From the IMG/VR virus record IMGVR_UViG_3300027686_001029: DNA of 64,000 nt. One strand, written 5' to 3'. The DNA comes from a virus. The translations under genes were made by a program, and so were the position numbers. A model generated the notes under the pieces. The model worked only from the letters and a program-made list of their open reading frames with translations. It made no database searches and was not told where the DNA came from. Positions 5,770-44,446 of this stretch are shown here, one piece after another. Within the stretch, counting starts at the first letter, position 1; the number at the start of each line of letters is the position of its first letter.

Positions 5770-6650
5770 TGTTGCTTTCTTCCGTTATTAGATGTAGACT
5801 TATTATTACTTCTAGTAGGAGTATTACTACTATTAGAACTACTTCTTCTAGGAGTAGAGGTTCTTTGAACTTCTTGTCTCCTTATTTGATTAGACCTACT
5901 ATTATTATTATTATAAATAGTACGTCTATTATTGGTTCTAGTCAGCTGTATATTATTATTTCTACGTCTTATTACAGTAGGTACACTGTTAGGACTTAGA
6001 TATACTCTTACTTCTTTATTTTTTTCTCTCAATTTATTAACCATACGGTCGATTGTAGAAGCGGGTTGTTGGTTAACTAGGGTATTACCTGCTGTTGCTG
6101 ATCTTGGATTAACACTGCTACTTCCTCTTCTACCTCTATTGTAAGATATGTTTCTATTTTTAGGTTGATTATAATACAAGTTATTCCATGTATATCGATT
6201 ACCCCTTCTGTTATATGGATCATACCAGCTATTACCGTATCCCCAATTATTATAACCGTTACTTCCATACATTGAATTAAACCCAAAAGGGTCTCTCCAG
6301 TTATAATTAAAGTTATTAAATGGGTAATCAAATGCCCAATTCATCCAAAAGTTATTACTGTTAGCGTACATATCGAACCTACTATATGGATTCCACATGT
6401 TATACCTATTAAGTGTGCGGTTATTAAAGTACCAGCTGTAAGGCTGATTCATTGCATATTCAGCAAAATTATATCTAAATTGAAAATCGTCTCTTAGCTT
6501 TCTATTTAATTCCCATTGAGTATTAATTACACCTACTTCAATTTCATCTCCTGTTGGTCCGTATATAGGATCATAGTTATGAGTCGAGAGTTTAAAAGTA
6601 GAACAGCCTATTAAAATAAGAATAGATAAGGTAAGTAGTAATTTTCGCAT
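5766..6650 (-). CDS. Lipoprotein with W/Y/N-rich core and R/N/S-rich low-complexity tail
   Basis: Signal peptide with lipobox LIGC. Confidence 0.7.
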   Translation of the reverse strand: MRKLLLTLSILILIGCSTFKLSTHNYDPIYGPTGDEIEVGVINTQWELNRKLRDDFQFRYNFAEYAMNQPYSWYFNNRTLNRYNMWNPYSRFDMYANSNNFWMNWAFDYPFNNFNYNWRDPFGFNSMYGSNGYNNWGYGNSWYDPYNRRGNRYTWNNLYYNQPKNRNISYNRGRRGSSSVNPRSATAGNTLVNQQPASTIDRMVNKLREKNKEVRVYLSPNSVPTVIRRRNNNIQLTRTNNRRTIYNNNNSRSNQIRRQEVQRTSTPRRSSSNSSNTPTRSNNKSTSNNGRKQQ

Positions 6651-6653
6651 ATA

Positions 6654-7436
6654 TTATAGTTTAAGTGTAGTAGGGTAACTATTATAAATAGGTTCAACTA
6701 CGGGATGTTCTAATCCGTATAGTCTATATATAAGTTGAAATAGTTCAAAGTTCTCTTCAATTTTGTCTATTTGTAATACTTTCCATCCTTTACCCTGTAT
6801 TACATTTTTCTGTTTAGAGGGTCCTCTACTTTGAGCTTTAAGCCAAATGATACCTGTCCTATCAATTTTCTGGTTTTTAGATTCTTCTAACGCTTTTGCA
6901 TATGAAGCTAACTGAAGATCAAAAGACTTGTGTACTGAGTTGGATGTTTTGATGTCTAGTAACCATATTTCTCCATTCATTTTACATACAATGTCTGCTG
7001 TACCTGCATACTTATGTTTATCTGACCATACAAATTCTTCTGCAGAAATAAGTTCTGGTTTATGAGTTGTCCAGAAGTCATGAAACTTTAATATCATTTC
7101 CCATACAAGTTGGCTATATTTAGCTCTACCGTAATCATCCATCCATGTTACTTCATTTCCTAGTATCAACTGTTCTGCAGCTTCATGTACTTGTGTACCT
7201 TCTTTACCTGCTCTACGCATAATAAGATCAGCGTTATGCCCAACATCCTTCATCCACGATTCGAAGAACTTATTCTTGGGCATATATTGGAGTATTGTAG
7301 TTACGGACGGGTAATATACTCCTTCGCCTCTCTTATAGACTCTACGGTCTAAAAAGTTTATTTGCTTTAATTTAGGGTTAAAGTCTAATTTCTTTTTTTC
7401 ATTCTGTTCTAGAATGTTCATACCTTGTTTTATCAT
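6654..7436 (-). CDS. PD-(D/E)XK (Cas4-like) exonuclease
   Basis: YPSVTTIL, GTQVH, GTAD...LLDIKTS, QLASY motifs. Confidence 0.85.
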   Translation of the reverse strand: MIKQGMNILEQNEKKKLDFNPKLKQINFLDRRVYKRGEGVYYPSVTTILQYMPKNKFFESWMKDVGHNADLIMRRAGKEGTQVHEAAEQLILGNEVTWMDDYGRAKYSQLVWEMILKFHDFWTTHKPELISAEEFVWSDKHKYAGTADIVCKMNGEIWLLDIKTSNSVHKSFDLQLASYAKALEESKNQKIDRTGIIWLKAQSRGPSKQKNVIQGKGWKVLQIDKIEENFELFQLIYRLYGLEHPVVEPIYNSYPTTLKL

Positions 7437-8356
7437 AAATCTAGCTTATGCATCATTAGACTGCTAAGGTCTAATTCTTCTGCTGTTTTAATTAAATCTG
7501 TAAATGACTTAAAGCCCATGTTAGATGGGTCTTTTTCTTTCATATCAATTAAGAATACTCTTTTACCGAGGTTTAAGAATTGTTCTGATATTTGTAATGC
7601 TTTTGTTTTAGCATCATTATCTAATGCAATGTATATATCTTCAAGAGGGCTTATAAGAATCTTTTTGTATAGAGCTGTAGAGATTGACTTTCCTAGTATG
7701 GGTATGACATTACGTTTTATAGCTATAGCATCAAATACACCTTCACATAGTATGATAGGCATATTCCAATTAATTAAGTTCTCAAAGAATATTATATCTT
7801 TTGAAGTTTCAGGGTTCTTGTATTTAAAGTAATCCCCCTGGTAACTTCGTGCAACAAAGAAATTGAGTTGATTGGATCTAGAATAACTTGGAATAATAAC
7901 TCTTCCTCCATACTCTCCACTTGCTGCGTATCCAATACCATATTTAATAAAATCTGTTGAGCTAAGTCCTCTTGCATATAGGTATTTTTTAATTAAGTTA
8001 GCTGTAACTGATGTTGTTGTTGCATTTTGAAGCAATTGAAACTCTTTTGGTAGTTCTAATATAGATAGGTGTTTGTATTCCACCTCATTCCCTTTCGGTA
8101 CAAACTTAAGAATATCTACTGCTTGATCACGAGGTGTTTGCAACTGTCTTAATAGGGACCTAATCGTAGTCCCTCTAGTTTGACAAACCCAACATTCCCA
8201 GTAGTTCTTACCTTCTTCGTTAGTAAACATATTAATTTCTAACTTAGGTTTGCGGTGATTGCAAAAAGGGCATGAGAAAGCATAATTATCTCTAGCTCTC
8301 TTATGACTCTTACCTAGTATATTCTCTATACTTCCTAAAAGAAAAGCGTAATCCAT
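7433..8356 (-). CDS. DNA primase (Zn finger + TOPRIM)
   Basis: CPFCNH...CWVC zinc domain; CEGVFDA and LDNDA TOPRIM motifs. Confidence 0.9.
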   Translation of the reverse strand: MDYAFLLGSIENILGKSHKRARDNYAFSCPFCNHRKPKLEINMFTNEEGKNYWECWVCQTRGTTIRSLLRQLQTPRDQAVDILKFVPKGNEVEYKHLSILELPKEFQLLQNATTTSVTANLIKKYLYARGLSSTDFIKYGIGYAASGEYGGRVIIPSYSRSNQLNFFVARSYQGDYFKYKNPETSKDIIFFENLINWNMPIILCEGVFDAIAIKRNVIPILGKSISTALYKKILISPLEDIYIALDNDAKTKALQISEQFLNLGKRVFLIDMKEKDPSNMGFKSFTDLIKTAEELDLSSLMMHKLDL

Positions 8357-11234: not shown

Positions 11235-13763
11235 CTAGAGTTTAGATTTCAGCTCATCAATTTGACCTTGCTGATCTTTTATAGCTTCAATTAATAACGC
11301 GACAATTTTTTCATAACGTACAGCTTTATAGCCGTTATCTCTATCTACTACTATTTCTGGAAGTATGGCTTCTATTTCTTGAGCAATAACTCCAACATCG
11401 TGTCCTTCATGGTTTGATTTAGAATTCCAATCAAATTCATATCCCCCTATAGATTTTAATTTCTCTATCGGGTTTGATATAGGAGTAACATTATCTTTTA
11501 ACCTTTCATCCGAAGAGTAGTATGCTGTTATATCTCCTGTAGCTCTTATATCCCCTGCTACATCTAATTTTGCAGCAGGAGCACTAGTCCCTATACCAAC
11601 ATTACCGTTAGCTGCAATTCTCATGCGCTCGGTATTGTTGTAAGTAGCAAATGCCATACCCGTATCAGCACCACTTGCAATCTCTGCTTTCATAGACACA
11701 GAACCTCTAAGCACTGCTCCTGGTGCTGTTGTATCTGCTGAGAAAAAGTCTAGTGAACCTATAGTGTTTCCTACAGCCCACGTTCCATCCTTTGTGCATC
11801 CCAATCTAATTCTAGCTGTATCAACATTAGAACTTTCTATATTTAAAAGTGCATCAGGAGTAGTTGTTCCTATACCAACGTTGCCGCCGTTAAAGTAAGT
11901 ATTATTGTTTGCTTGAATTTCAACTTTTACAGTAGCATCTGACTTCATTAAAAGACGAGCATCATTAGTGGCATTTGTTGTAAACTCAAAAGTTTGTTTA
12001 CCATCTGTATTCGGAGCAATAACAACCACTCCATTTACGTCTAATTTTGCGTTAGGCGAATCAGTCCCGATACCAATGTTACCGTCAGAATCTATACGTG
12101 CCTTTTCTGTGCCATCTGTTTTGAATATAACATTTGAACTTCCTCCTGTATATGAGCCATCTTCATCAGCACCTAATGTTAGGTTTTTTTGAGAATGAAT
12201 TTCAATTCCTCCTGTTACTTGTTTTATAACTCCAGCTTCTCCTTGTGTATCTCTTGAAATAAGTATAGCATTAGTTGTTCCTGCAGATGGTGTATTTACA
12301 TTTAATGTTGCAAGTTTTGCATTACTTCCTGTTATCTTAAGGCCTGTTATGTTACCATTAATATTAATTCCACCCGAGCCTGATATGATGCGAGAATTTA
12401 TATCTAAATTTCCTCCTAGTTTTGGAGCATTATCGTCCACTATATTTGTTGAACCGCCACTTGCTGCTGATATTGAAGAAGAAACATTAGTAATACCCGG
12501 TATGGCAAATGTTCCAGAAGTTACAGTCACTGTCGAACCGTTGTCTGTTATATTACTACCTGTTAAATGGCCGGTACCTGTTCCTTTTTGAATTTGATTT
12601 GCTAAAGGATATATCGGAGTTCCTTTAGTAGGGTAAGACGGTCCAAATATTACTACCTTATGATCATCTGCTCCACCTTCATATTCTTGGAACCAATCGT
12701 TAGTTGATCCATCAAACTGTAGTGATGCTGTTACATTAGACGATCCTGAGTCTATTACTTTTATCCCTGCATACCTAGCAGTTGGAGTATTATTATTAAG
12801 TATAAGAAATGCATCTCCTATTATTTTAGCTGACCCGGTAATTGTTTGAACGTAACCAAATGAACCTGTACCGTTGACTTGTAAGTTACCAGCAACTTGT
12901 AAGTTACTGCTTACTACTCCTGATCCGGTAACTTTAAGGTTACCTGTAAGTTGAGTTTCACCTGTCCTTGTAAGTAGTCCAGTTTGAGTGACTCCTCCTG
13001 TTAGAGTAACATTACCTGTTGAGTTTATAGATATTGAACCTGAATGTGTAAGGCTTCCAGTATGAAGTATGCTTCCATTTATAGTAGTGTTTCCTGTTTG
13101 ATTTACATTACCAACATGAGTTACATTACCAGTTACTGTGTGAGTAGATCCTGAAAGAATAGTGTTACCTGTTGATTGTAGTACTCCTGTCAAGTTAGTA
13201 TTTCCAATTCTAGTAGTATTACCTAAGTGTAAGTTACTTCCAGTAAGTTCTAATTTACCTACTGTTGTATTGTTTCCTGTTTGAGTATAATTTCCAATTA
13301 ATGCTCCACTTCCTGTTGTACTTACGCTACCTGTAAAATCGTGAAAATCGTCTAATGAGTCTCCAAACTTAGTTGATCCTGAGTCGAATATAATAGACGA
13401 ACTAATTAGTTCTGTTTTAAACTCTTGTGCAAATACTGTTCCTCCTACAGTAAGGTCTCCCGTAATGTTTCCTGATCCGGTTACAATAAGTTTCTTTTGG
13501 TTATAGTTCCATAAGAAGTAGCTTGACCCTGTTGCAATAGATCCTGTACCTAATGCTTCGGATCCAGATTTAACCTGTATTGAGTATTTAGATCCTCTTG
13601 CTTGGTTAACAGGAAGGATTGTCTCTGCATTTAGAGATTTAGATTTAAATAAACTTATAGAATGAGAGGTATAAGAACTTGAATAATATAGTTCTCTAAA
13701 GTTAGTATCTAACTCTGTATGAGTTAAAGCTCTTCCTAATCCGTCTCTAAATGTTAGTGCCAT
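11235..13763 (-). CDS. Long tail fibre with C-terminal peptidase S74 intramolecular chaperone
   Basis: TG-rich beta repeats, three N(V/I)GIGT repeats, SDERLKDN...GVIAQEIE...VRYEKIVALLIEAIK. Confidence 0.9.
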   Translation of the reverse strand: MALTFRDGLGRALTHTELDTNFRELYYSSSYTSHSISLFKSKSLNAETILPVNQARGSKYSIQVKSGSEALGTGSIATGSSYFLWNYNQKKLIVTGSGNITGDLTVGGTVFAQEFKTELISSSIIFDSGSTKFGDSLDDFHDFTGSVSTTGSGALIGNYTQTGNNTTVGKLELTGSNLHLGNTTRIGNTNLTGVLQSTGNTILSGSTHTVTGNVTHVGNVNQTGNTTINGSILHTGSLTHSGSISINSTGNVTLTGGVTQTGLLTRTGETQLTGNLKVTGSGVVSSNLQVAGNLQVNGTGSFGYVQTITGSAKIIGDAFLILNNNTPTARYAGIKVIDSGSSNVTASLQFDGSTNDWFQEYEGGADDHKVVIFGPSYPTKGTPIYPLANQIQKGTGTGHLTGSNITDNGSTVTVTSGTFAIPGITNVSSSISAASGGSTNIVDDNAPKLGGNLDINSRIISGSGGININGNITGLKITGSNAKLATLNVNTPSAGTTNAILISRDTQGEAGVIKQVTGGIEIHSQKNLTLGADEDGSYTGGSSNVIFKTDGTEKARIDSDGNIGIGTDSPNAKLDVNGVVVIAPNTDGKQTFEFTTNATNDARLLMKSDATVKVEIQANNNTYFNGGNVGIGTTTPDALLNIESSNVDTARIRLGCTKDGTWAVGNTIGSLDFFSADTTAPGAVLRGSVSMKAEIASGADTGMAFATYNNTERMRIAANGNVGIGTSAPAAKLDVAGDIRATGDITAYYSSDERLKDNVTPISNPIEKLKSIGGYEFDWNSKSNHEGHDVGVIAQEIEAILPEIVVDRDNGYKAVRYEKIVALLIEAIKDQQGQIDELKSKL

Positions 13764-22398: not shown

Positions 22399-24216
22399 TT
22401 ATAATGTTGTTACACGTCCTTCAATATCGGAATTTGGATATTTTATTTCAAATATACATGGATCATATGAAGGGTATACTATGTTATTTCTAGTAGCTCC
22501 TTTCACATCGTATGCGTATGTTGAATATTTACCGCCTGTTAAATTATCTACTTCTACTGTTTTTACTGTTTGTACTCCTTTTACTTTATCTAATAGTGTA
22601 TATATGCTAGATAAGTTAATAGGTTGGTTAATGTTCCATTTACTTATACTGAAATACTCTTTAAGTTCTTCTGTACAGGAAAGAAGTACGTCTCTAGAAG
22701 AAACATTTGGAAGAGCTACTATCTCAAACTTAACTTTTATATTAACTATGAATGCATCTTTAAGATTGATTGCATCAGTAAGCATTATATATTGAGAAAG
22801 GTATTTTTTAAGGTTAGCTTTTAAAGACGAACTAGTATTAACTAATTTTTTATTAATATCGTACCCTAACGTATACATGCTTAATGCTAAAGAATTAACA
22901 TCAGAATTTTGCTGTTCACTATTTAAAGTAGCTAATCCCTTACTTACATATACTTTAGCAACAGATCCGAATTGAGTAGGCATTGATAATGCTCTTACTG
23001 TGAAGTCGTTTTCTGTTACCATTCTTTGTTGCTCAGCAAATGAACGGAGAGAGTTTTGTCTAAGTTCATCAATTGAATCACCGTCTCCTCCTCCTGTAGC
23101 GGCTTCAACGTTATTAAATGCTAGTGTTGAGGTATAAGAGCTGTCTGTTGCTGATGTAGTTACTGTTCCGAGTGCTGTAATAGAGTTTGCTGGAGCATTT
23201 GATGCTACTCCTCCTCCTACTATATAGGTTATAGTTAATGTAGTATTTGTAGGTGATATACCATATGCACCTGTAAAGAGAAAATTAGAAGGATCATAAG
23301 CATAGTCTAATTTATTAACGTCTTGCTTAGTTCCTGTTATCTGTTCATTTGGGTTTGGAAGGAAAGAATCATTATCTGTCCCAGTTATACCGGACCCAAA
23401 TTGTATTTGTAATACTCCTTTTGATGTAAACCTAGTGACAAACCTTCTTGGTGCTTTAACTAAATTAAGGGTAGAGGGGACTAAGTTACTATCTGTTGCA
23501 CTATTTGTTACCTCTTGAAATACGGTATCTTGTCCTAAAAAAGGAACCTCTTTCCACTCATTGCCATCACTATCTACTATACTTTGTACTTTTACTATAT
23601 TAGTGTCTCCTAATTCTATAGTGGCAAATTTCTCTGCTGTTGTAAAGGTTGAGGTTGTAACTTTTGGTGCTCCTGAAGTAACTAGTACTTTTTTGGATAA
23701 TAAAAATTCAGCAGGTTGTCCTCCATCTAGTGAAAAGATAGTTACGTCTGTTGGATCGTAGGAACTAGAAAAACTAAAGTCAATTGGTTCAGAAGTTGTA
23801 AAAGTAGTTGAACCTGATACAGTTGATGTTACTGTGGCTCCTTCAGTGATTTTTAATGCTTGATTATAGTTAGGGGTGTAGGTTGAACCTTGTGCTGCTA
23901 CTCTCTGCGTAACTGTTAATACTGTGCTAGATACAGCTGAAACTTTAGGCCTATAGCCCATCATGTAGGCTAAAGAATATAGATTAGATGGGTTCTTCGC
24001 GTGTTGTAAGAAGGTTTCCTGAAGTTGTGTATCTTGGTAGAAGGATAGTACATCTCCTAGATATGAGGCCATTTCTATAAACATCATACCAGGTGATGTG
24101 GGTGAGAAGTCGTTATAGGCGTCGGGGAAATAGTTCTTAGCTAATTCTATCAGCCCTTGTCTGAAGTCTCCAAACTCCTTATTTACGTACTTTATGTCTC
24201 TTTCTTGTTGTGCCAT
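22399..24216 (-). CDS. Baseplate wedge subunit (T4 gp6/baseplate J-like)
   Basis: YFPDAYNDF..SPGMMFIEM, LQIQFGSG, GGGDGDSIDELR, RMVTENDF. Confidence 0.9.
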   Translation of the reverse strand: MAQQERDIKYVNKEFGDFRQGLIELAKNYFPDAYNDFSPTSPGMMFIEMASYLGDVLSFYQDTQLQETFLQHAKNPSNLYSLAYMMGYRPKVSAVSSTVLTVTQRVAAQGSTYTPNYNQALKITEGATVTSTVSGSTTFTTSEPIDFSFSSSYDPTDVTIFSLDGGQPAEFLLSKKVLVTSGAPKVTTSTFTTAEKFATIELGDTNIVKVQSIVDSDGNEWKEVPFLGQDTVFQEVTNSATDSNLVPSTLNLVKAPRRFVTRFTSKGVLQIQFGSGITGTDNDSFLPNPNEQITGTKQDVNKLDYAYDPSNFLFTGAYGISPTNTTLTITYIVGGGVASNAPANSITALGTVTTSATDSSYTSTLAFNNVEAATGGGDGDSIDELRQNSLRSFAEQQRMVTENDFTVRALSMPTQFGSVAKVYVSKGLATLNSEQQNSDVNSLALSMYTLGYDINKKLVNTSSSLKANLKKYLSQYIMLTDAINLKDAFIVNIKVKFEIVALPNVSSRDVLLSCTEELKEYFSISKWNINQPINLSSIYTLLDKVKGVQTVKTVEVDNLTGGKYSTYAYDVKGATRNNIVYPSYDPCIFEIKYPNSDIEGRVTTL

Positions 24217-37776: not shown

Positions 37777-38439
37777 TTAAATAAACTTTTCACTGTAGTA
37801 ACCTTTGTCGTGGTTACCAATTGGATGTGTTGAGTATACACAGGCATAAAGAGGTCGGGGCTCTGTAATATTATTTACTTCTGATTTATGAAGGGTGTTT
37901 CCATCTATTACTATTATATCACCAGCTTTAGTGTCTATGAATTCATACTCTTGAGTAACTTTGTTAAAACAAGATATACCTCCTGCTTCTTTTGGAGAGT
38001 CAACTAATATCATACAGCAGTTAATTGTACTAAACTCCCCTCTTAAAGATCCTTCTGGATCAGGTCCAAATTTATTATCAGTATGGGGAGGAAAGAAGAA
38101 CTCTTCTTCTGGAAGTTTAACTACTGCCTGATCATTAAAAAGATAAGGTATATCAGTGTCGAGGAATCTCTGTGCTATGTCTAACATAAATTCCGACTTG
38201 TAGTACTTCCATAGGTTAGGATCTAATGTGCTAGCTAACTCTAACCCTTTCCAGAACATTCCTGTTCCGTTATGTCTTGGTTCTCCTTCTCTCTCAGCAT
38301 ACTTTATTTTTAAGTTTACTAATCTTTCTCTTAGATCTAAAACAACATAATCTGGTATTACATTTTTAAGATGGTAAAAACCTTTCTCTTTATGTTCTAG
38401 ATATTGATTCATATTTACTTCACTTTGAAAAATAACCAT
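37777..38439 (-). CDS. PhyH-family Fe(II)/2OG dioxygenase
   Basis: FPPHTD...GNTLHKS..N...R HxD/H triad. Confidence 0.85.
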   Translation of the reverse strand: MVIFQSEVNMNQYLEHKEKGFYHLKNVIPDYVVLDLRERLVNLKIKYAEREGEPRHNGTGMFWKGLELASTLDPNLWKYYKSEFMLDIAQRFLDTDIPYLFNDQAVVKLPEEEFFFPPHTDNKFGPDPEGSLRGEFSTINCCMILVDSPKEAGGISCFNKVTQEYEFIDTKAGDIIVIDGNTLHKSEVNNITEPRPLYACVYSTHPIGNHDKGYYSEKFI

Positions 38440-38789
38440 GCGGTTGCTTCATACTCCTTTAAATCTTTTCTAGGCCTTGTAACTACTAGAGTATGTCTAT
38501 CTTGTGATAAAACAAAGTGAAGTGAATATTGATCATCTGGCTTAGTAACAAAGAAGTTCTTTCCTTTGATTTCGTACTTACCTGTAATAGTATCTGTTAC
38601 ACCATCAGTGTCGGTAAATACTCTATTAAATCTACCGTCTAAAGTCATAGTAAGAACATTATTATGTTCAAAATTAATCCATACCCCATTCATATTGCGG
38701 TTAAGATCGGCTGTAATAAAATCTGGGGTTTGTTGAGCTGTAACATATAGGGTAATTATCAGCAGCAGTGATGTAAAAACGTTTTTCAT
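38415..38789 (-). CDS. Secreted lipocalin-like beta protein
   Basis: Sec signal (VTA/QQ); beta-rich. Confidence 0.6.
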   Translation of the reverse strand: MKNVFTSLLLIITLYVTAQQTPDFITADLNRNMNGVWINFEHNNVLTMTLDGRFNRVFTDTDGVTDTITGKYEIKGKNFFVTKPDDQYSLHFVLSQDRHTLVVTRPRKDLKEYEATAWLFFKVK

Positions 38790-38997: not shown

Positions 38998-40017
38998 TTA
39001 GTTATTTTTCCATATTGCAAAATCACCTGGGAAAATTCCTACTTTAAAATTGGAAATCTCAACGTTATCTTGAGAAAGAATTTTTACATACCCGTCATAT
39101 GTTCCAACGTATACTCTATCGCCAATAGTTTCTACAGAATAAACATTATTAGCATCGTAATTACCAATTAAAGTACTTTCATCTATAGTTAAATCTTCTT
39201 TAATAGAAGCAATTCCTCCTTGGAAACTTCTATAAGTTTTTTGAGCATATGAATGCACTGAGCCTCCACATACAGTCCCTGCACCATAATCTGCTATCCT
39301 AATTGTATTGTCAAGTTTTATATCTATTGAGCTAGTACCATGAAATGCGTTCCAATTTTCATCATAAAAAGTTCTAGCAATATAAATTACATCGTCCTCT
39401 ACTAATAGAGAGGTTGGACCGTCTCCAACTTCGTATGAATCTGTTATATTATTGGCGACTGGGTTAATCTTTACAACTGTTGATGCATCACTATAATCAG
39501 AGTTCATCGTAATTCCAACATATAAATCTCCATTATTTTCTATAATAGATTCAGGTAAACCGTCTACTTCTATAGAGGATTCAATAGTGTAGTTTAATAG
39601 GTTTAAAACTTTGATATCGCTTGTGTTCCAATTAGTAAAGTACAGTTTATCTTGAAATACAATCATTTCTCTTGGAGATGATCCATTTGTAGATATTTCA
39701 GAATCTATTTCTAACATTCCATCTTTAAAAATATTAAATACTTTTATCATGTGAGAGTTATTTACTATAACAAATAACTTATCATTATAAACTAGCAATG
39801 ATTGGACTACATCTCCTACATTCTCTATGGTGTTAATTACACCTTCTTCATCTATTACTGATATAGATCCGTTTTTTTCGCCATAGTTTCCTTCGTTTGC
39901 AACAAATAAAAGTTTAACAGTCGGCTCGGAAATTACTGGATCCAAAACTTCTTCTCCTTTGTTACAGGATATTAAAGTTAAAAAAAGAGTTATAAGTATT
40001 AAAACTTGTTTTTTCAT
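38998..40017 (-). CDS. btuG: BtuG-like (DUF5074/YncE) beta-propeller surface lipoprotein, putative cobalamin binder
   Basis: Lipobox LISC; NEGNY..NGSIS, VGDVVQS, VIVNNSH, SPR, GDGPTSL match Bacteroides BtuG motifs as recalled. Confidence 0.7.
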   Translation of the reverse strand: MKKQVLILITLFLTLISCNKGEEVLDPVISEPTVKLLFVANEGNYGEKNGSISVIDEEGVINTIENVGDVVQSLLVYNDKLFVIVNNSHMIKVFNIFKDGMLEIDSEISTNGSSPREMIVFQDKLYFTNWNTSDIKVLNLLNYTIESSIEVDGLPESIIENNGDLYVGITMNSDYSDASTVVKINPVANNITDSYEVGDGPTSLLVEDDVIYIARTFYDENWNAFHGTSSIDIKLDNTIRIADYGAGTVCGGSVHSYAQKTYRSFQGGIASIKEDLTIDESTLIGNYDANNVYSVETIGDRVYVGTYDGYVKILSQDNVEISNFKVGIFPGDFAIWKNN

Positions 40018-40040
40018 ATTGATTATTTATAGGCTATTAT

Positions 40041-40529
40041 TTATTTAATGTTAAAGTTAATGAGTTTATTTTCAGAATATCTAAATGAATACTTTAATAG
40101 GTAACTGAAAAATAAATCTCCTATTATAGAGTTTATAAAGAAAGGAATTGCCATAGTATAACAAAGTAATAACCCTTCTATTGTTTTTGGATAACCACCT
40201 AACCAAACTCCAAAGTTGGTGATAATAAAAAAGATAACAGATGATGTTAATACATTTGTAACCTTTATCTTTTTCCAATATGTTCCTAGTAGGCTAATTA
40301 AAAAGAACGAACTATATACCCATATTGATATAGAGTAAAATCCTAGGTACAAATCAGATATTCCTAATGCTAGTATTGGTAGAAATATTCCTAACCATTT
40401 ATTTCTAAATGTAGTTGAACCAAATAACGCTAATGCAACTATTGGAGTAAAGTTTGGAGGATGTGGTATTAACCTTATTAAAACTGCAAATGCTACAAAT
40501 GCTAATATTAACTTCTCTTGTTTATTCAT
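40041..40529 (-). CDS. DUF6580-like multi-pass membrane protein (putative vitamin transporter S-component)
   Basis: RLIPHPPNFTPIVALALF, SDLYLGFY, FFIITNFGVW, AIPFFINSIIGD; 5-6 TM segments. Confidence 0.8.
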   Translation of the reverse strand: MNKQEKLILAFVAFAVLIRLIPHPPNFTPIVALALFGSTTFRNKWLGIFLPILALGISDLYLGFYSISIWVYSSFFLISLLGTYWKKIKVTNVLTSSVIFFIITNFGVWLGGYPKTIEGLLLCYTMAIPFFINSIIGDLFFSYLLKYSFRYSENKLINFNIK

Positions 40530-41817: not shown

Positions 41818-42537
41818 TTATCCAAATATTTCAACCCTAATATCTTTAGTCATTTTAAATCCTCTTTTAGATAAATGCTCTCTACCTTCTTTTACCATTC
41901 TATCCCATCCACAATAGTATACTAGAGGTTTTTGTAGTCCTAAAAGTTGCTTTTCATCTATTAGTTTAAGATAATGTTCATGAACATATCCGGTTTTACC
42001 TTCCCACTCTTCTTGAGATAAAGTTGGAATAAATTTAAAATTAGGAAGTATGCTTTCAATAAGTTTCATTTCTTCCCAATAACATATGTCCTCTTGTTTT
42101 CTAGTACCAAAGAAAAGTTTTACTTCTTGAGTAGGAACTCCATTTAGAGCTATAAAATTAATCATAGAACGGAAAGGGCTTATACCTGAACCAGTAGATA
42201 CAAAGTAAAGGTCTCTATCTATAGTCTCTGGAAGAGTAAATACTCCCATTGGTCCTCTATACGCAAATTCATCACCTATCTTAGCCTCTTTAAATAGATA
42301 TTCACTCATTGCTCCTCCTTCTAAATAAGTGATAATTAATTCAAATCTAGGAGTACCATCTGCCCAAGAGGCAACTGAATAGTTACGAACTGCTGAATCT
42401 CCCTTACCAGGTTTGCTGCATAACTGTACTAGCATTCCTGATATCATATTAATCCTATCGAGTAAAGGATCTTCAAATATAAATCTCCAATTAGATTTAG
42501 TTTCTTTTATTATATCTACGAGTACTGCTACGTTCAT
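41818..42537 (-). CDS. Ferredoxin/flavodoxin-NADP+ reductase (FNR family)
   Basis: RNYSVAS, GAMSEYL, GPMGVF, STGSGISPF, YCGWDRM. Confidence 0.9.
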   Translation of the reverse strand: MNVAVLVDIIKETKSNWRFIFEDPLLDRINMISGMLVQLCSKPGKGDSAVRNYSVASWADGTPRFELIITYLEGGAMSEYLFKEAKIGDEFAYRGPMGVFTLPETIDRDLYFVSTGSGISPFRSMINFIALNGVPTQEVKLFFGTRKQEDICYWEEMKLIESILPNFKFIPTLSQEEWEGKTGYVHEHYLKLIDEKQLLGLQKPLVYYCGWDRMVKEGREHLSKRGFKMTKDIRVEIFG

Positions 42538-42713
42538 TAAAGTATTTGTTTTACGAATTCATATACAAAGGTTGCCAAACTAAATGGCCATAATAATGTA
42601 TGGAAGAATCTTTCTCTCCAAATCCAATTTCTACCTAATTCACCTTCAATATTACTGGTAGTATAGTATTCTAACCACCAGCACCATATAATTCCTACTA
42701 AAATATATCCCAT
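42537..42713 (-). CDS. 58-aa Trp-rich membrane protein
   Basis: Manual translation; TAATG coupling; two hydrophobic segments. Confidence 0.6.
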   Translation of the reverse strand: MGYILVGIIWCWWLEYYTTSNIEGELGRNWIWRERFFHTLLWPFSLATFVYEFVKQIL

Positions 42714-42714
42714 T

Positions 42715-43860
42715 TTATTTACCGTTTATTAAAGTGCTTATTTTTATTGCTAATTCCCTAAACCAATTGCTACTATGGCCTCTTGTTGTTTCTGCTGCTG
42801 TTCCTATTCGGATACCACTAGTCTCTATGAAACTACGAGGATCGTTAGGAATACCGTTCTTATTAACAGTAATACCGTTCTCTTCTAACATATCAGCAAC
42901 TACTTTTCCACTATGATTTTTAGTGGATAAATCAATTAATATTAAATGAGAATCAGTTCCACCAGTTAAGATAGGTATATTATTATCTCTAAACACATCA
43001 CACATATGGTTTGCGTTTTCTTTTACCTTAACACAGTACTCCTTAAACTCTGGTGTATTTGCTTCTATAAAACATTGTGCTTTAGCAGCAATTATATGCA
43101 TTAGAGGACCACCTTGAGTACCCGGAAATATTGCTCCATTTATTTTCTTTGTATAATCTGAGTTATTCCAGATAATAATTCCGCCTCTCGGTCCTCTTAA
43201 GGTTTTATGAGTTGTTGAAGTTACAACATCTGCATACTCAACTGGATTAGGGTATTCTCCTCCTGCGATAAGACCTGAGTAATGAGCCATATCTACTAAA
43301 AGTATTGCTCCTACTTCATCAGCTATTTCTCTAAACTTCTTCCAATTGATTATTCTTGAATAAGCACTTGCACCAGCTATAATCATTTTTGGTTTTACTT
43401 TTAATGCATAATTTCTTATACCATCGTAATTTAAAAAACCATCTATATCTACTCCGTATGAATATGCATCATAAATTTTACCTGAAATGTTAGGTTTGCT
43501 TCCATGTGATAAATGCCCTCCACTAGCTAAACCCATCCCTAATATCCTATCACCTGGTTTTAAGAATGCTTGAAATACTGCTGTATTAGCATTTGCTCCA
43601 CAATGAGGTTGTACATTGGCAAAGTTACAACTGTATAATTTTTTGAGTTCCTCTATTGCAAGATTTTCAATTTCATCCATATGATCACATCCATTGTAAT
43701 ACCTTTTGCCGGGATACCCTTCTGCGTATTTATTTGTAAGTATTGAGCCTGCTAATTCCATAACAGCATCAGAAGCAAAGTTTTCACTAGCAATTAGTTC
43801 TATAGTACTTGATTGTCTACTCTTTTCTTTATCGAGTATATCTATGATTCGTTTATCCAT
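42715..43860 (-). CDS. glyA: Serine hydroxymethyltransferase
   Basis: LIASENF, NKYAEGYPGKRYY, TTHKTLRGPRGG PLP-lysine motif. Confidence 0.97.
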   Translation of the reverse strand: MDKRIIDILDKEKSRQSSTIELIASENFASDAVMELAGSILTNKYAEGYPGKRYYNGCDHMDEIENLAIEELKKLYSCNFANVQPHCGANANTAVFQAFLKPGDRILGMGLASGGHLSHGSKPNISGKIYDAYSYGVDIDGFLNYDGIRNYALKVKPKMIIAGASAYSRIINWKKFREIADEVGAILLVDMAHYSGLIAGGEYPNPVEYADVVTSTTHKTLRGPRGGIIIWNNSDYTKKINGAIFPGTQGGPLMHIIAAKAQCFIEANTPEFKEYCVKVKENANHMCDVFRDNNIPILTGGTDSHLILIDLSTKNHSGKVVADMLEENGITVNKNGIPNDPRSFIETSGIRIGTAAETTRGHSSNWFRELAIKISTLINGK

Positions 43861-44446
43861 TTAAATCTCTTTTAATGTCTTTTGTAACTACTTTTAAGTA
43901 TTTTTTTCTAGTTGCTGCATCTACAAAAGGTACGGACCAGAATTGCTTGGTCTTAAACCATCTATTAAGATTCCAGCCAAATACAAATGTATATACTCCC
44001 ATCACCAATCTTAACTTAACTGAATTCAGATATAGTGTTATAACTGGAAGCATTGGAGCTCCATGGGTAATATAGGTTCTAACTTTTTTATCACTTAATT
44101 TTGGTTTAGGGTAAGCATATTTACCAAACAAAGGTACAAAGTTATATGCAAATCCCGGTGTAAGAACTTCATCAAAGAATGTTTCCATCTTAGGAGTTAA
44201 TCTAAACCACCAAACAGGAGATATAAAATATAAGTGAGTAGCCCAAGTAACAGAGTTTTTATAGTTTTGTATCATTTCAGTCTTATCTCTATGGAGTTTA
44301 TCCTCGTATAAATCAATAACTCTCCAAGCTACCTGATCTGGGCAATTCTTAAATGTACGTACTATTGTTTTAAATATACCGTTGTAACAAAATGATTTTT
44401 GATCTGGGTGACCTACTATAACTAAGTGTTTAAAATTCTTTTTCAC
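43853..44446 (-). CDS. NAD(P)H:quinone oxidoreductase, flavodoxin-2 family
   Basis: GHPDQKSF, DLYE, SPVWWFRLTPKMETFFDEV. Confidence 0.85.
   Translation of the reverse strand: MKKNFKHLVIVGHPDQKSFCYNGIFKTIVRTFKNCPDQVAWRVIDLYEDKLHRDKTEMIQNYKNSVTWATHLYFISPVWWFRLTPKMETFFDEVLTPGFAYNFVPLFGKYAYPKPKLSDKKVRTYITHGAPMLPVITLYLNSVKLRLVMGVYTFVFGWNLNRWFKTKQFWSVPFVDAATRKKYLKVVTKDIKRDLNG

Follow-up and report, generated by a model that had tools for sequence, protein, structure and literature searches.

Why would a lytic marine phage carry genes that resemble a vitamin B12 uptake system? Few marine microbes make vitamin B12 and many are limited by it, and marine Flavobacteriia need it for methionine synthesis. 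The question is raised by IMG/VR record IMGVR_UViG_3300027686_001029, a 64,000-nucleotide stretch of viral DNA (hereafter, the window), in which a gene for a BtuG-like lipoprotein follows a gene for a small membrane protein of the family DUF6580. A sequence-only reading of this stretch had proposed that the two products capture B12 at the cell surface and move it through the inner membrane, in the service of a host B12 enzyme such as the methionine synthase MetH, and the comparative evidence presented here, drawn from sequences and predicted structures, favors that proposal. We estimate the probability that the pair is a phage auxiliary module for the acquisition of vitamin B12 (corrinoid) at about 0.7, on the basis of comparative genomics and not of biochemistry. 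In cells, homologues of both genes form part of B12 or methionine/S-adenosylmethionine (SAM) regulons; in other phages, they are found in B12-riboswitch operons. The pair consists of the following features:

38998-40017, minus strand: gene for a BtuG-family beta-propeller lipoprotein of 339 amino acids (aa), from a divergent marine subfamily, with a predicted role in corrinoid capture (open reading frame, Pfam, PDB sequence matches and fold)
39964-40017, minus strand: signal peptide and lipobox LISC (Cys18), then N-K-G-E-E (read from the translation)
39268-39270: codon for Cys250 of the lipoprotein, in a VCGG loop
40018-40040, minus strand: A+T-rich spacer of 23 nucleotides (nt) between the BtuG-like and DUF6580 genes (coordinates and sequence)
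40041-40529, minus strand: gene for a DUF6580 membrane protein of 162 aa, with six helices and an S-component/BtuM-like fold, a predicted importer (Pfam PF20221 and model)
40161-40163 and 40461-40463: codons for Cys123 and His23 of the DUF6580 protein

The two open reading frames are thus adjacent and co-oriented, as had been read from the sequence, with the DUF6580 gene upstream. No terminator-like site was found in the 23-nt spacer, and a sigma-70 promoter scan returned promoter-like sites no more often than in shuffled sequences. The short, A+T-rich spacer is consistent with co-transcription.

A lipoprotein of the BtuG family

The N-terminus of the lipoprotein is a signal peptide with the lipobox LISC, whose Cys18 is invariant in 31 homologues. 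The residues N-K-G-E-E that follow resemble the surface-export signal of Bacteroidota lipoproteins, reportedly described by Lauber and colleagues in 2016, and we infer that the protein is exported to the cell surface. All the motifs that the sequence-only reading had listed as BtuG hallmarks are present, namely NEGNY (residues 41-45), GDVVQS (68-73), VNNSH (85-89), SPR (114-116) and GDGPTSL (198-204), and they align with their counterparts in solved BtuG proteins. A Pfam search matched DUF5074 with 32.2 bits (cut-off 27.2), over residues 38-88 only. In a phmmer search of the PDB, every significant match was a Bacteroides BtuG (E 7.1e-10 to 8P97_B), and with a profile of the 31 homologues the E-value fell to 1.9e-21, the nine best matches being BtuG entries.

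The AlphaFold model of the lipoprotein (predicted local distance difference test, pLDDT, 89.5) gave the same answer. Foldseek ranks 1-16 are all BtuG structures, mostly cobalamin-bound, with template-modeling (TM) scores of 0.72-0.79 and E-values of 6e-18 to 5e-13; the next family, AztD, follows at E 5e-12 and TM 0.57, and the viral structure library BFVD yielded generic propellers only, at TM <= 0.66. The comparison with BtuG that the sequence-only reading had suggested is therefore borne out, and by sequence and predicted fold the lipoprotein is a BtuG-family seven-bladed propeller. With BtuG2 (BT1954), BtuG1, BtuG3 and BT2095 of Bacteroides thetaiotaomicron (PDB 8BMY, 8BMZ, 8BN0, 8OKV, 8P97, 8BLW; 3DSM) it shares, besides this fold, the NEGN, GDVxQS, VNNSH, SPR and PTSL motifs, an acidic surface and a Bacteroidota lineage. 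It differs from them in its low identity (~22%), in its position on a long separate branch, in blades 5-7, which are unalignable by sequence, in having no adjacent btuB, in the SAM-riboswitch control seen in Flavobacteriales-type genomes, and in its T4-like phage carrier. The mature protein is strongly acidic (49 D+E versus 20 K+R), which may be likened to the corrinoid-attracting face of BtuG2.

BtuG2 contacts corrinoids through Glu55, Phe58, Gln93, Asn107, Ser131, Trp194, Ser195, Tyr196, Gln219, Tyr239, Trp272, Tyr316 and Tyr335 (PMC13616437, section 3.4; PMC10404256). These residues, numbered as in UniProt, were mapped via a HMMER alignment to 8BN0_A. All 31 subfamily members have the same residue as BtuG2 at Glu55, Gln93, Asn107 and Ser131 (E42, Q72, N86 and S114 in the phage protein), and the position of Ser195 (S176) is Ser in 29 of the 31 and Thr in the other two. 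BtuG2 holds the corrin amide side chains by hydrogen bonds, and the phage protein keeps most of the residues involved; of the eight that hydrogen-bond the corrin, these five are conserved across the subfamily without, or almost without, exception. The positions of Phe58 and Trp194 (Y45 and Y175) are aromatic throughout. The B12 contacts that the sequence-only reading would lead one to expect are therefore found in part, with five conserved and two still aromatic, while two are replaced and four are unmapped. As judged from this alignment, the part of the site that recognizes the corrin ring appears to be kept, and the rest of the site is uncertain. Cys250, in a VCGG loop that canonical BtuG motifs lack, is invariant across the marine subfamily; together with His23, Asp59 and Cys123, which are invariant in DUF6580, it is a candidate for a cobalt or ligand contact.

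In cells, surveyed with one genome per species, the subfamily occurs at 75 loci (40-54% identity) in marine Flavobacteriales/Cryomorphaceae, Marinoscillum and Marinimicrobia, and its regulatory context points to B12 and methionine. One Marinimicrobia assembly has a sole cobalamin riboswitch, and it lies ~70 nt upstream of a BtuG-like homologue (47% identical). The canonical distant relatives L094 and L095 are organized as cobalamin riboswitch-btuB-btuG. At five loci (L005-L007, L029 and L035), the BtuG-like gene abuts a split metH-DUF2452-metF-metK(-ahcY) cluster. The genome of Cryomorphaceae BACL29 (G001) has only three SAM-II riboswitches, which head the BtuG-like gene, a DUF6580-metH unit and a metY-like gene:

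L031:7879-7938, L105:7887-7945 and L143: SAM-II loci of genome G001

No cobalamin riboswitch was found in G001, and SAM, not B12, seems to control B12 uptake in this organism. A search of G001-G003 with the BtuB of L094 gave no match at E <= 1e-10, an uninformative outcome.

DUF6580 in cells and in phages

The membrane protein matches Pfam PF20221 with 158.2 bits (cut-off 27) over residues 4-155 of 162, and keeps every invariant position of 29 homologues. Its model (pLDDT 86.4) has six helices, in agreement with the 5-6 transmembrane segments of the sequence-only reading. In VIA-align, the best match is BtuM with hydroxycobalamin (Z 12.3, root-mean-square deviation 3.3 A, 150 residues), and other S-components follow with Z scores of 11.6, 11.3, 11.3, 10.8 and 10.4 (141-151 residues in all matches). 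Foldseek found no PDB match at E <= 0.001, its probabilities reaching 1.00 with weak E-values. A phmmer search with the single sequence returned only ND4L (E 0.13), which we rejected as a chance match. The family profile had a sole, marginal PDB match, to helices 1-3 of 6FNP chain A (E 0.0067, 19.7 bits), the 182-aa membrane chain of the energy-coupling factor (ECF) transporter ECF-CbrT; from its size and name we infer that this chain is CbrT. Since S-components for other vitamins score level with BtuM, the ligand cannot be told from the fold by itself, and it is from genomic context that we read the ligand specificity.

Of 201 sampled Bacteroidota genomes, 92 (~46%) have DUF6580. A 125-bit cobalamin riboswitch in a Cyclobacteriaceae genome heads a run of DUF6580, cobT, cobS and a phosphatase gene, and all five of the DUF6580 loci that adjoin a receptor or BtuG gene are cobalamin riboswitch-btuB(-btuG)-DUF6580 operons. 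The gene also stands next to metH, in the order SAM-I/IV riboswitch-metK-queF-like-DUF6580-metH in Marinoscillum and SAM-II-DUF6580-metH in Cryomorphaceae. The statement, in the sequence-only reading, that DUF6580 often sits in cobalamin-uptake loci is thus partly accurate: six cellular loci have a cobalamin riboswitch (and btuB, btuG or cobT-cobS), two are the SAM-riboswitch metH operons, and in 22 of 29 others the gene follows a YceI-like gene, a setting that is uninformative about B12.

Proxies for the host genome suggest how such a protein could work. No FecCD/BtuC permease was found in four of five DUF6580-bearing proxy genomes (controls positive in 14 of 14), and no CbiQ/EcfT in any of the five (controls positive in 11 of 14), although these proxies are metagenome-assembled or single-amplified genomes, in which absence is unproven. 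Because they show neither BtuCD nor an ECF module, we read DUF6580 as an importer acting alone; given also the genomic context and the modeled fold, its most probable cargo is a corrinoid. A close parallel is BtuM of Thiobacillus denitrificans (PDB 6FFV/8OVV), a B12 transporter that resembles an S-component and works alone. Both proteins have a small six-helix fold, both occur in genomes without an ECF module or BtuCD and are linked to btuB and cobalamin riboswitches, and BtuM was identified by the same missing-gene argument. Yet the two have no detectable sequence similarity, the cobalt-ligating loop-3 Cys80 is found only in BtuM, and BtuM is distributed in Proteobacteria while DUF6580 is distributed in Bacteroidota, Marinimicrobia and phages. 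CbrT, the S-component of Lactobacillus delbrueckii ECF-CbrT (PDB 6FNP), binds cobalamin and cobinamide and shares P-N-x-x-P and IS-x-x-x-LGF motifs with DUF6580, but it works with an EcfAA'T module, none of which was found in the DUF6580-bearing proxy genomes. DUF6580 may therefore be likened in its action to BtuM or CbrT, while being a member of neither. A full-text literature search found no paper on DUF6580.

Relatives in other viruses extend this picture. IMG/VR holds at least 91 viral DUF6580 relatives, of which 79 loci were kept for analysis. In the tree, the phage copies group in a single supported clade (100/99), whose members are 50-87% identical. A TonB-dependent receptor of ~600 aa adjoins DUF6580 in 33 of the 79 loci; the one tested, from L221, has E. 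coli BtuB as its only PDB matches, over nearly its full length (E 3e-23). An AdoCbl-II riboswitch lies ~100 nt upstream of DUF6580 in 13 of the 79, and 12 of these riboswitches were verified by Rfam with 72-93 bits (gathering score 36.5):

L167-L178 and L180: phage loci with AdoCbl-II riboswitch, DUF6580 and btuB; for example, L175:5821-5901 riboswitch, 6001-6441 DUF6580, 6618-8351 BtuB-like

The contigs with this riboswitch also bear gp23, T4-type terminase and gp32-like genes. Their operons combine the same DUF6580 family, 41-47% identical to the protein of the window, with an outer-membrane B12 component, but this component is a BtuB homologue and not BtuG, and a riboswitch is added. A literature search, which was not exhaustive, returned no description of phage AdoCbl-II riboswitch-DUF6580-btuB operons.

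Several minor observations concern these loci. A glutamine riboswitch (L212:3686-3733) lies on a viral contig with a BtuB-like/DUF6580 pair, so that there are phages with two or more metabolite sensors. At a distance of 1-2.4 kb from DUF6580, phages encode radical SAM proteins of ~570-590 aa (L014:3281-5050 and L146:1952-3646); on the N-terminal side of the core these show a B12-binding domain that stays below threshold (E 9e-4 and 3e-4), a class B arrangement that is suggestive only. The L146 contig also bears a tRNA cluster. The related viral record G206 (41% complete) showed no B12-binding domain PF02310. Among Marinimicrobia, a protein of ~524-552 aa without a Pfam match (L104:8642-10216 and 23 Marinimicrobia loci) begins 1 base past the DUF6580 stop, its gene and the BtuG-like gene under riboswitch control being convergent; this protein is a candidate for the partner missing from the system. 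DUF2452 recurs in metH/ahcY clusters and also adjoins one viral DUF6580 gene (L005:14800-15228; L106:2794-3162; L163:6646-7026).

The proposed role and its competitors

The host of the phage can be approached through the lipoprotein. In the tree, the BtuG-like clade of the window has as its sister a cellular gene next to metH, that of L005 (66% identity), and then groups with Cryomorphaceae MED-G14, which points to a Flavobacteriales-type host. In the mechanism that we propose, the phage would infect a marine bacterium of this type, and the lipoprotein, exported to the surface of the host cell, would capture corrinoids there and hand them to a BtuB-type TonB-dependent receptor of the host; the window itself encodes no such receptor. 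DUF6580 alone would then carry the corrinoid across the inner membrane, as BtuM does. The extra B12 would most likely sustain the B12-dependent methionine synthase MetH of the host, and its methionine would feed a loop of the phage's own MetK, nucleosidase and apt products, yielding SAM for SAM-dependent enzymes of the phage.

The genes for this loop lie outside the window. Walking along contigs that bear the phage's own proteins extended the view to ~19 kb past the window end, and at ~15-18 kb (L226:1897-3856) the same phage encodes an apt-like phosphoribosyltransferase, a PNP_UDP nucleosidase and MetK in mutually overlapping genes, with GroEL just upstream. It is because of this apt-nucleosidase-metK group, a serine hydroxymethyltransferase (SHMT)/flavoprotein gene set upstream of the pair, and the linkage to metH in cells that we favor a role in host MetH activity and SAM regeneration.

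Adjacent DUF6580 and BtuG-like genes were found in the phage of the window (L001-L004) and in a second lineage (L008-L011, L023/L162), in which the pair has apt-like, metK, queF-like and nucleosidase genes as its neighbors. In the tree, the BtuG-like genes of one lineage belong to a different clade from those of the other, and the supported branches force at least two changes. A BtuG-like gene lies within 6 kb of a viral DUF6580 gene at only 1 of the 79 loci, and the closest viral BtuG-like relatives (L017-L022) have no adjacent DUF6580. The co-occurrence that the sequence-only reading implied is thus real in a second lineage but rare, and we conclude that the pair is a recurrent but uncommon combination and not a fixed module.

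Phage-borne corrinoid uptake is not in itself new. Contrary to the statement of the sequence-only reading that no characterized phage system of this kind was known, a family of gut Bacteroidetes prophages carries btuGBFCD (Frye et al. 2021, PMC8759732). These are likewise phage-borne corrinoid uptake genes including BtuG, but the prophages are integrated and temperate, and the locus is complete and canonical; the window belongs to a T4-like marine phage with a divergent BtuG and DUF6580 only, and has no btuB, btuFCD or riboswitch. Our search of the literature on phage-encoded btuB or B12 uptake returned only host genes or this gut prophage paper. In line with this prophage family, an unannotated human faecal phage record (L224:8992-12487, MT835494.1) encodes a BtuG homologue of canonical type and, after it, a BtuB-like receptor. 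What is new here is the T4-like marine setting, the minimal make-up of BtuG plus DUF6580, the predicted function of DUF6580, and the riboswitch-DUF6580-btuB system of sister phages.

A broader generalization seems to us slightly better than an even bet. DUF6580 would be a new family of solitary inner-membrane corrinoid importers and a common auxiliary of marine T4-like phages, paired with whichever outer-membrane component suits the host, a BtuG-like lipoprotein in phages of Bacteroidota and, in others, BtuB with a phage-borne AdoCbl-II riboswitch; lytic marine phages would then sense B12 and rewire its acquisition by their hosts. A lytic phage with its own B12 genes would mean that viruses compete, through their hosts, for a scarce cofactor, and viral infection would be tied to the marine B12 and methyl cycles. 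DUF6580, given its spread in Bacteroidota and on viral contigs, would gain a specific and cheaply testable function and would fill the place of the missing inner-membrane B12 transporter in genomes without BtuCD. The phage-borne AdoCbl-II riboswitch would be a rare case of direct vitamin sensing by a virus.

A number of results weigh against a corrinoid role. In the lipoprotein, BtuG2 Tyr196 is replaced across the subfamily by Asp (D177 here) or Ser, and by Ala in one member; Gln219 is always Gly (G200 here); and Tyr239, Trp272, Tyr316 and Tyr335, on the upper-ligand side in blades 5-7, are unmappable by sequence. The tree sets the marine subfamily apart from canonical, btuB-linked BtuG by a very long, fully supported branch, and at none of the 75 cellular loci does a TonB-dependent receptor stand beside the BtuG-like gene. 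In the likeliest host group, the BtuG-like and DUF6580 genes respond to SAM and not to B12. The identification of DUF6580 as BtuM itself was rejected, there being no cysteine in loop 3 (residues 63-67) and no PDB sequence match to BtuM, and the fold match to BtuM is statistically tied with those to folate, riboflavin and biotin binders. The 22 of 29 further Bacteroidota loci in which DUF6580 follows a YceI-like gene have no B12 link; in the tree, these copies fall mostly in one derived clade of 22. Among phages, a clamp-loader gene stands upstream of the BtuG-like gene in L017-L022 (72-75% identity), and the 4-11 kb covered per locus contain no DUF6580 gene. Finally, no B12-dependent enzyme was found in the window.

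Some of these results lend themselves to the view that the pair has kept its fold but shifted its ligand, so that it handles another methionine/SAM-cycle metabolite or another tetrapyrrole (methionine, SAM or S-adenosylhomocysteine derivatives, folate, or a corrinoid precursor only). We consider this unlikely. It would account for the SAM riboswitches over the Cryomorphaceae and Marinoscillum genes, in genomes where no cobalamin riboswitch was found, as well as for the two replaced contacts and the unmapped upper-ligand pocket, the long branch of the marine subfamily, the tied Z scores of a fold common to folate, riboflavin, biotin and thiamin binders, and the metK, nucleosidase and apt neighbors in phages. 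However, the five conserved contacts are exactly those that bind the corrin amides, the Marinimicrobia subfamily members (47% identical) lie behind a cobalamin riboswitch, and DUF6580 sits in cobalamin-riboswitch operons with cobT-cobS or btuB at the six cellular loci and in AdoCbl-II operons with btuB at the 13 phage loci. Control by SAM would, moreover, be sensible for B12 uptake wherever MetH is the main consumer of B12.

A receptor mask, or superinfection exclusion, is a different kind of explanation and to our minds an improbable one. Here the lipoprotein would cap a TonB-dependent receptor of the host, and so block further adsorption or shield progeny from debris, while DUF6580 would be an unrelated neighbor. 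The Llp lipoprotein of phage T5 masks FhuA in like manner. The idea gains from the fact that BtuG closes tightly over BtuB as a lid, the two sharing an extensive interface (PMC10404256), from the clamp-loader neighborhood of the closest viral relatives, in which DUF6580 is not adjacent, and from the absence of btuB in the window. Masking alone, however, does not need the corrin-binding residues that are invariant in phage and cellular copies alike; the BtuG-like genes of two separate phage clades adjoin DUF6580; the pair of the L008 type sits amid metK, nucleosidase and apt genes; and the subfamily has no known receptor partner. It is very unlikely that the phage took up the genes from a host recently and that they have no selected role in it, since, although the sister relationship to L005 implies a host origin, both open reading frames are intact and are identical or nearly so on 23 and 13 contigs from different samples, the phage DUF6580 clade is old and well supported, and all family-invariant residues are retained.

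Acquisition of B12 for the methionine and SAM supply of the infected cell therefore remains the role that we prefer for the pair.

The window and the genes around the pair

The window carries two structural genes of T4 type:

22399-24216: T4-type baseplate wedge (PHROG, E 1.8e-17)
11235-13763: T4-type long tail fibre (PHROG, E 3e-33)

Because of these genes, the long runs of small same-strand open reading frames across the window, and the occurrence of the pair's proteins on marine metagenome contigs of up to 178 kb, the window is taken as phage-derived; it belongs to a T4-like marine phage of ~178 kb. A megablast search of the phage collection with 20 kb of the window gave no match. The DUF6580 protein likewise had no tblastn match in this collection, and the BtuG-like protein had one weak match, to a gut phage. 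Searches of PHROGs and NCBIfam were uninformative for both proteins. As the sequence-only reading had stated, the window has no BtuB and no riboswitch: an Rfam scan at the gathering cut-off was empty, and tblastn searches for BtuB, MetH, MetK and Cob proteins found no match in it.

At 41818-44446, 1.3-4 kb upstream of the pair, tightly packed genes encode a Flavodoxin_2 NAD(P)H oxidoreductase, SHMT, a 58-aa membrane peptide and a ferredoxin-NADP-reductase-like flavoprotein. These one-carbon and redox genes might work for MetH or in thymidylate synthesis. On its downstream side, the pair is directly followed by genes for a 124-aa secreted protein (38415-38789), with a weak DUF6705 match just under the cut-off, and for a PhyH-type 2-oxoglutarate dioxygenase (37777-38439). 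A small QueF-like gene, finally, occurs within the SAM-riboswitch metK-DUF6580-metH operon of Marinoscillum (L106:5854-6264) and beside the phage BtuG-like gene (L008:11958-12374; L162:7518-7925), which suggests that it is tied to the SAM cycle, instead of or besides queuosine synthesis.

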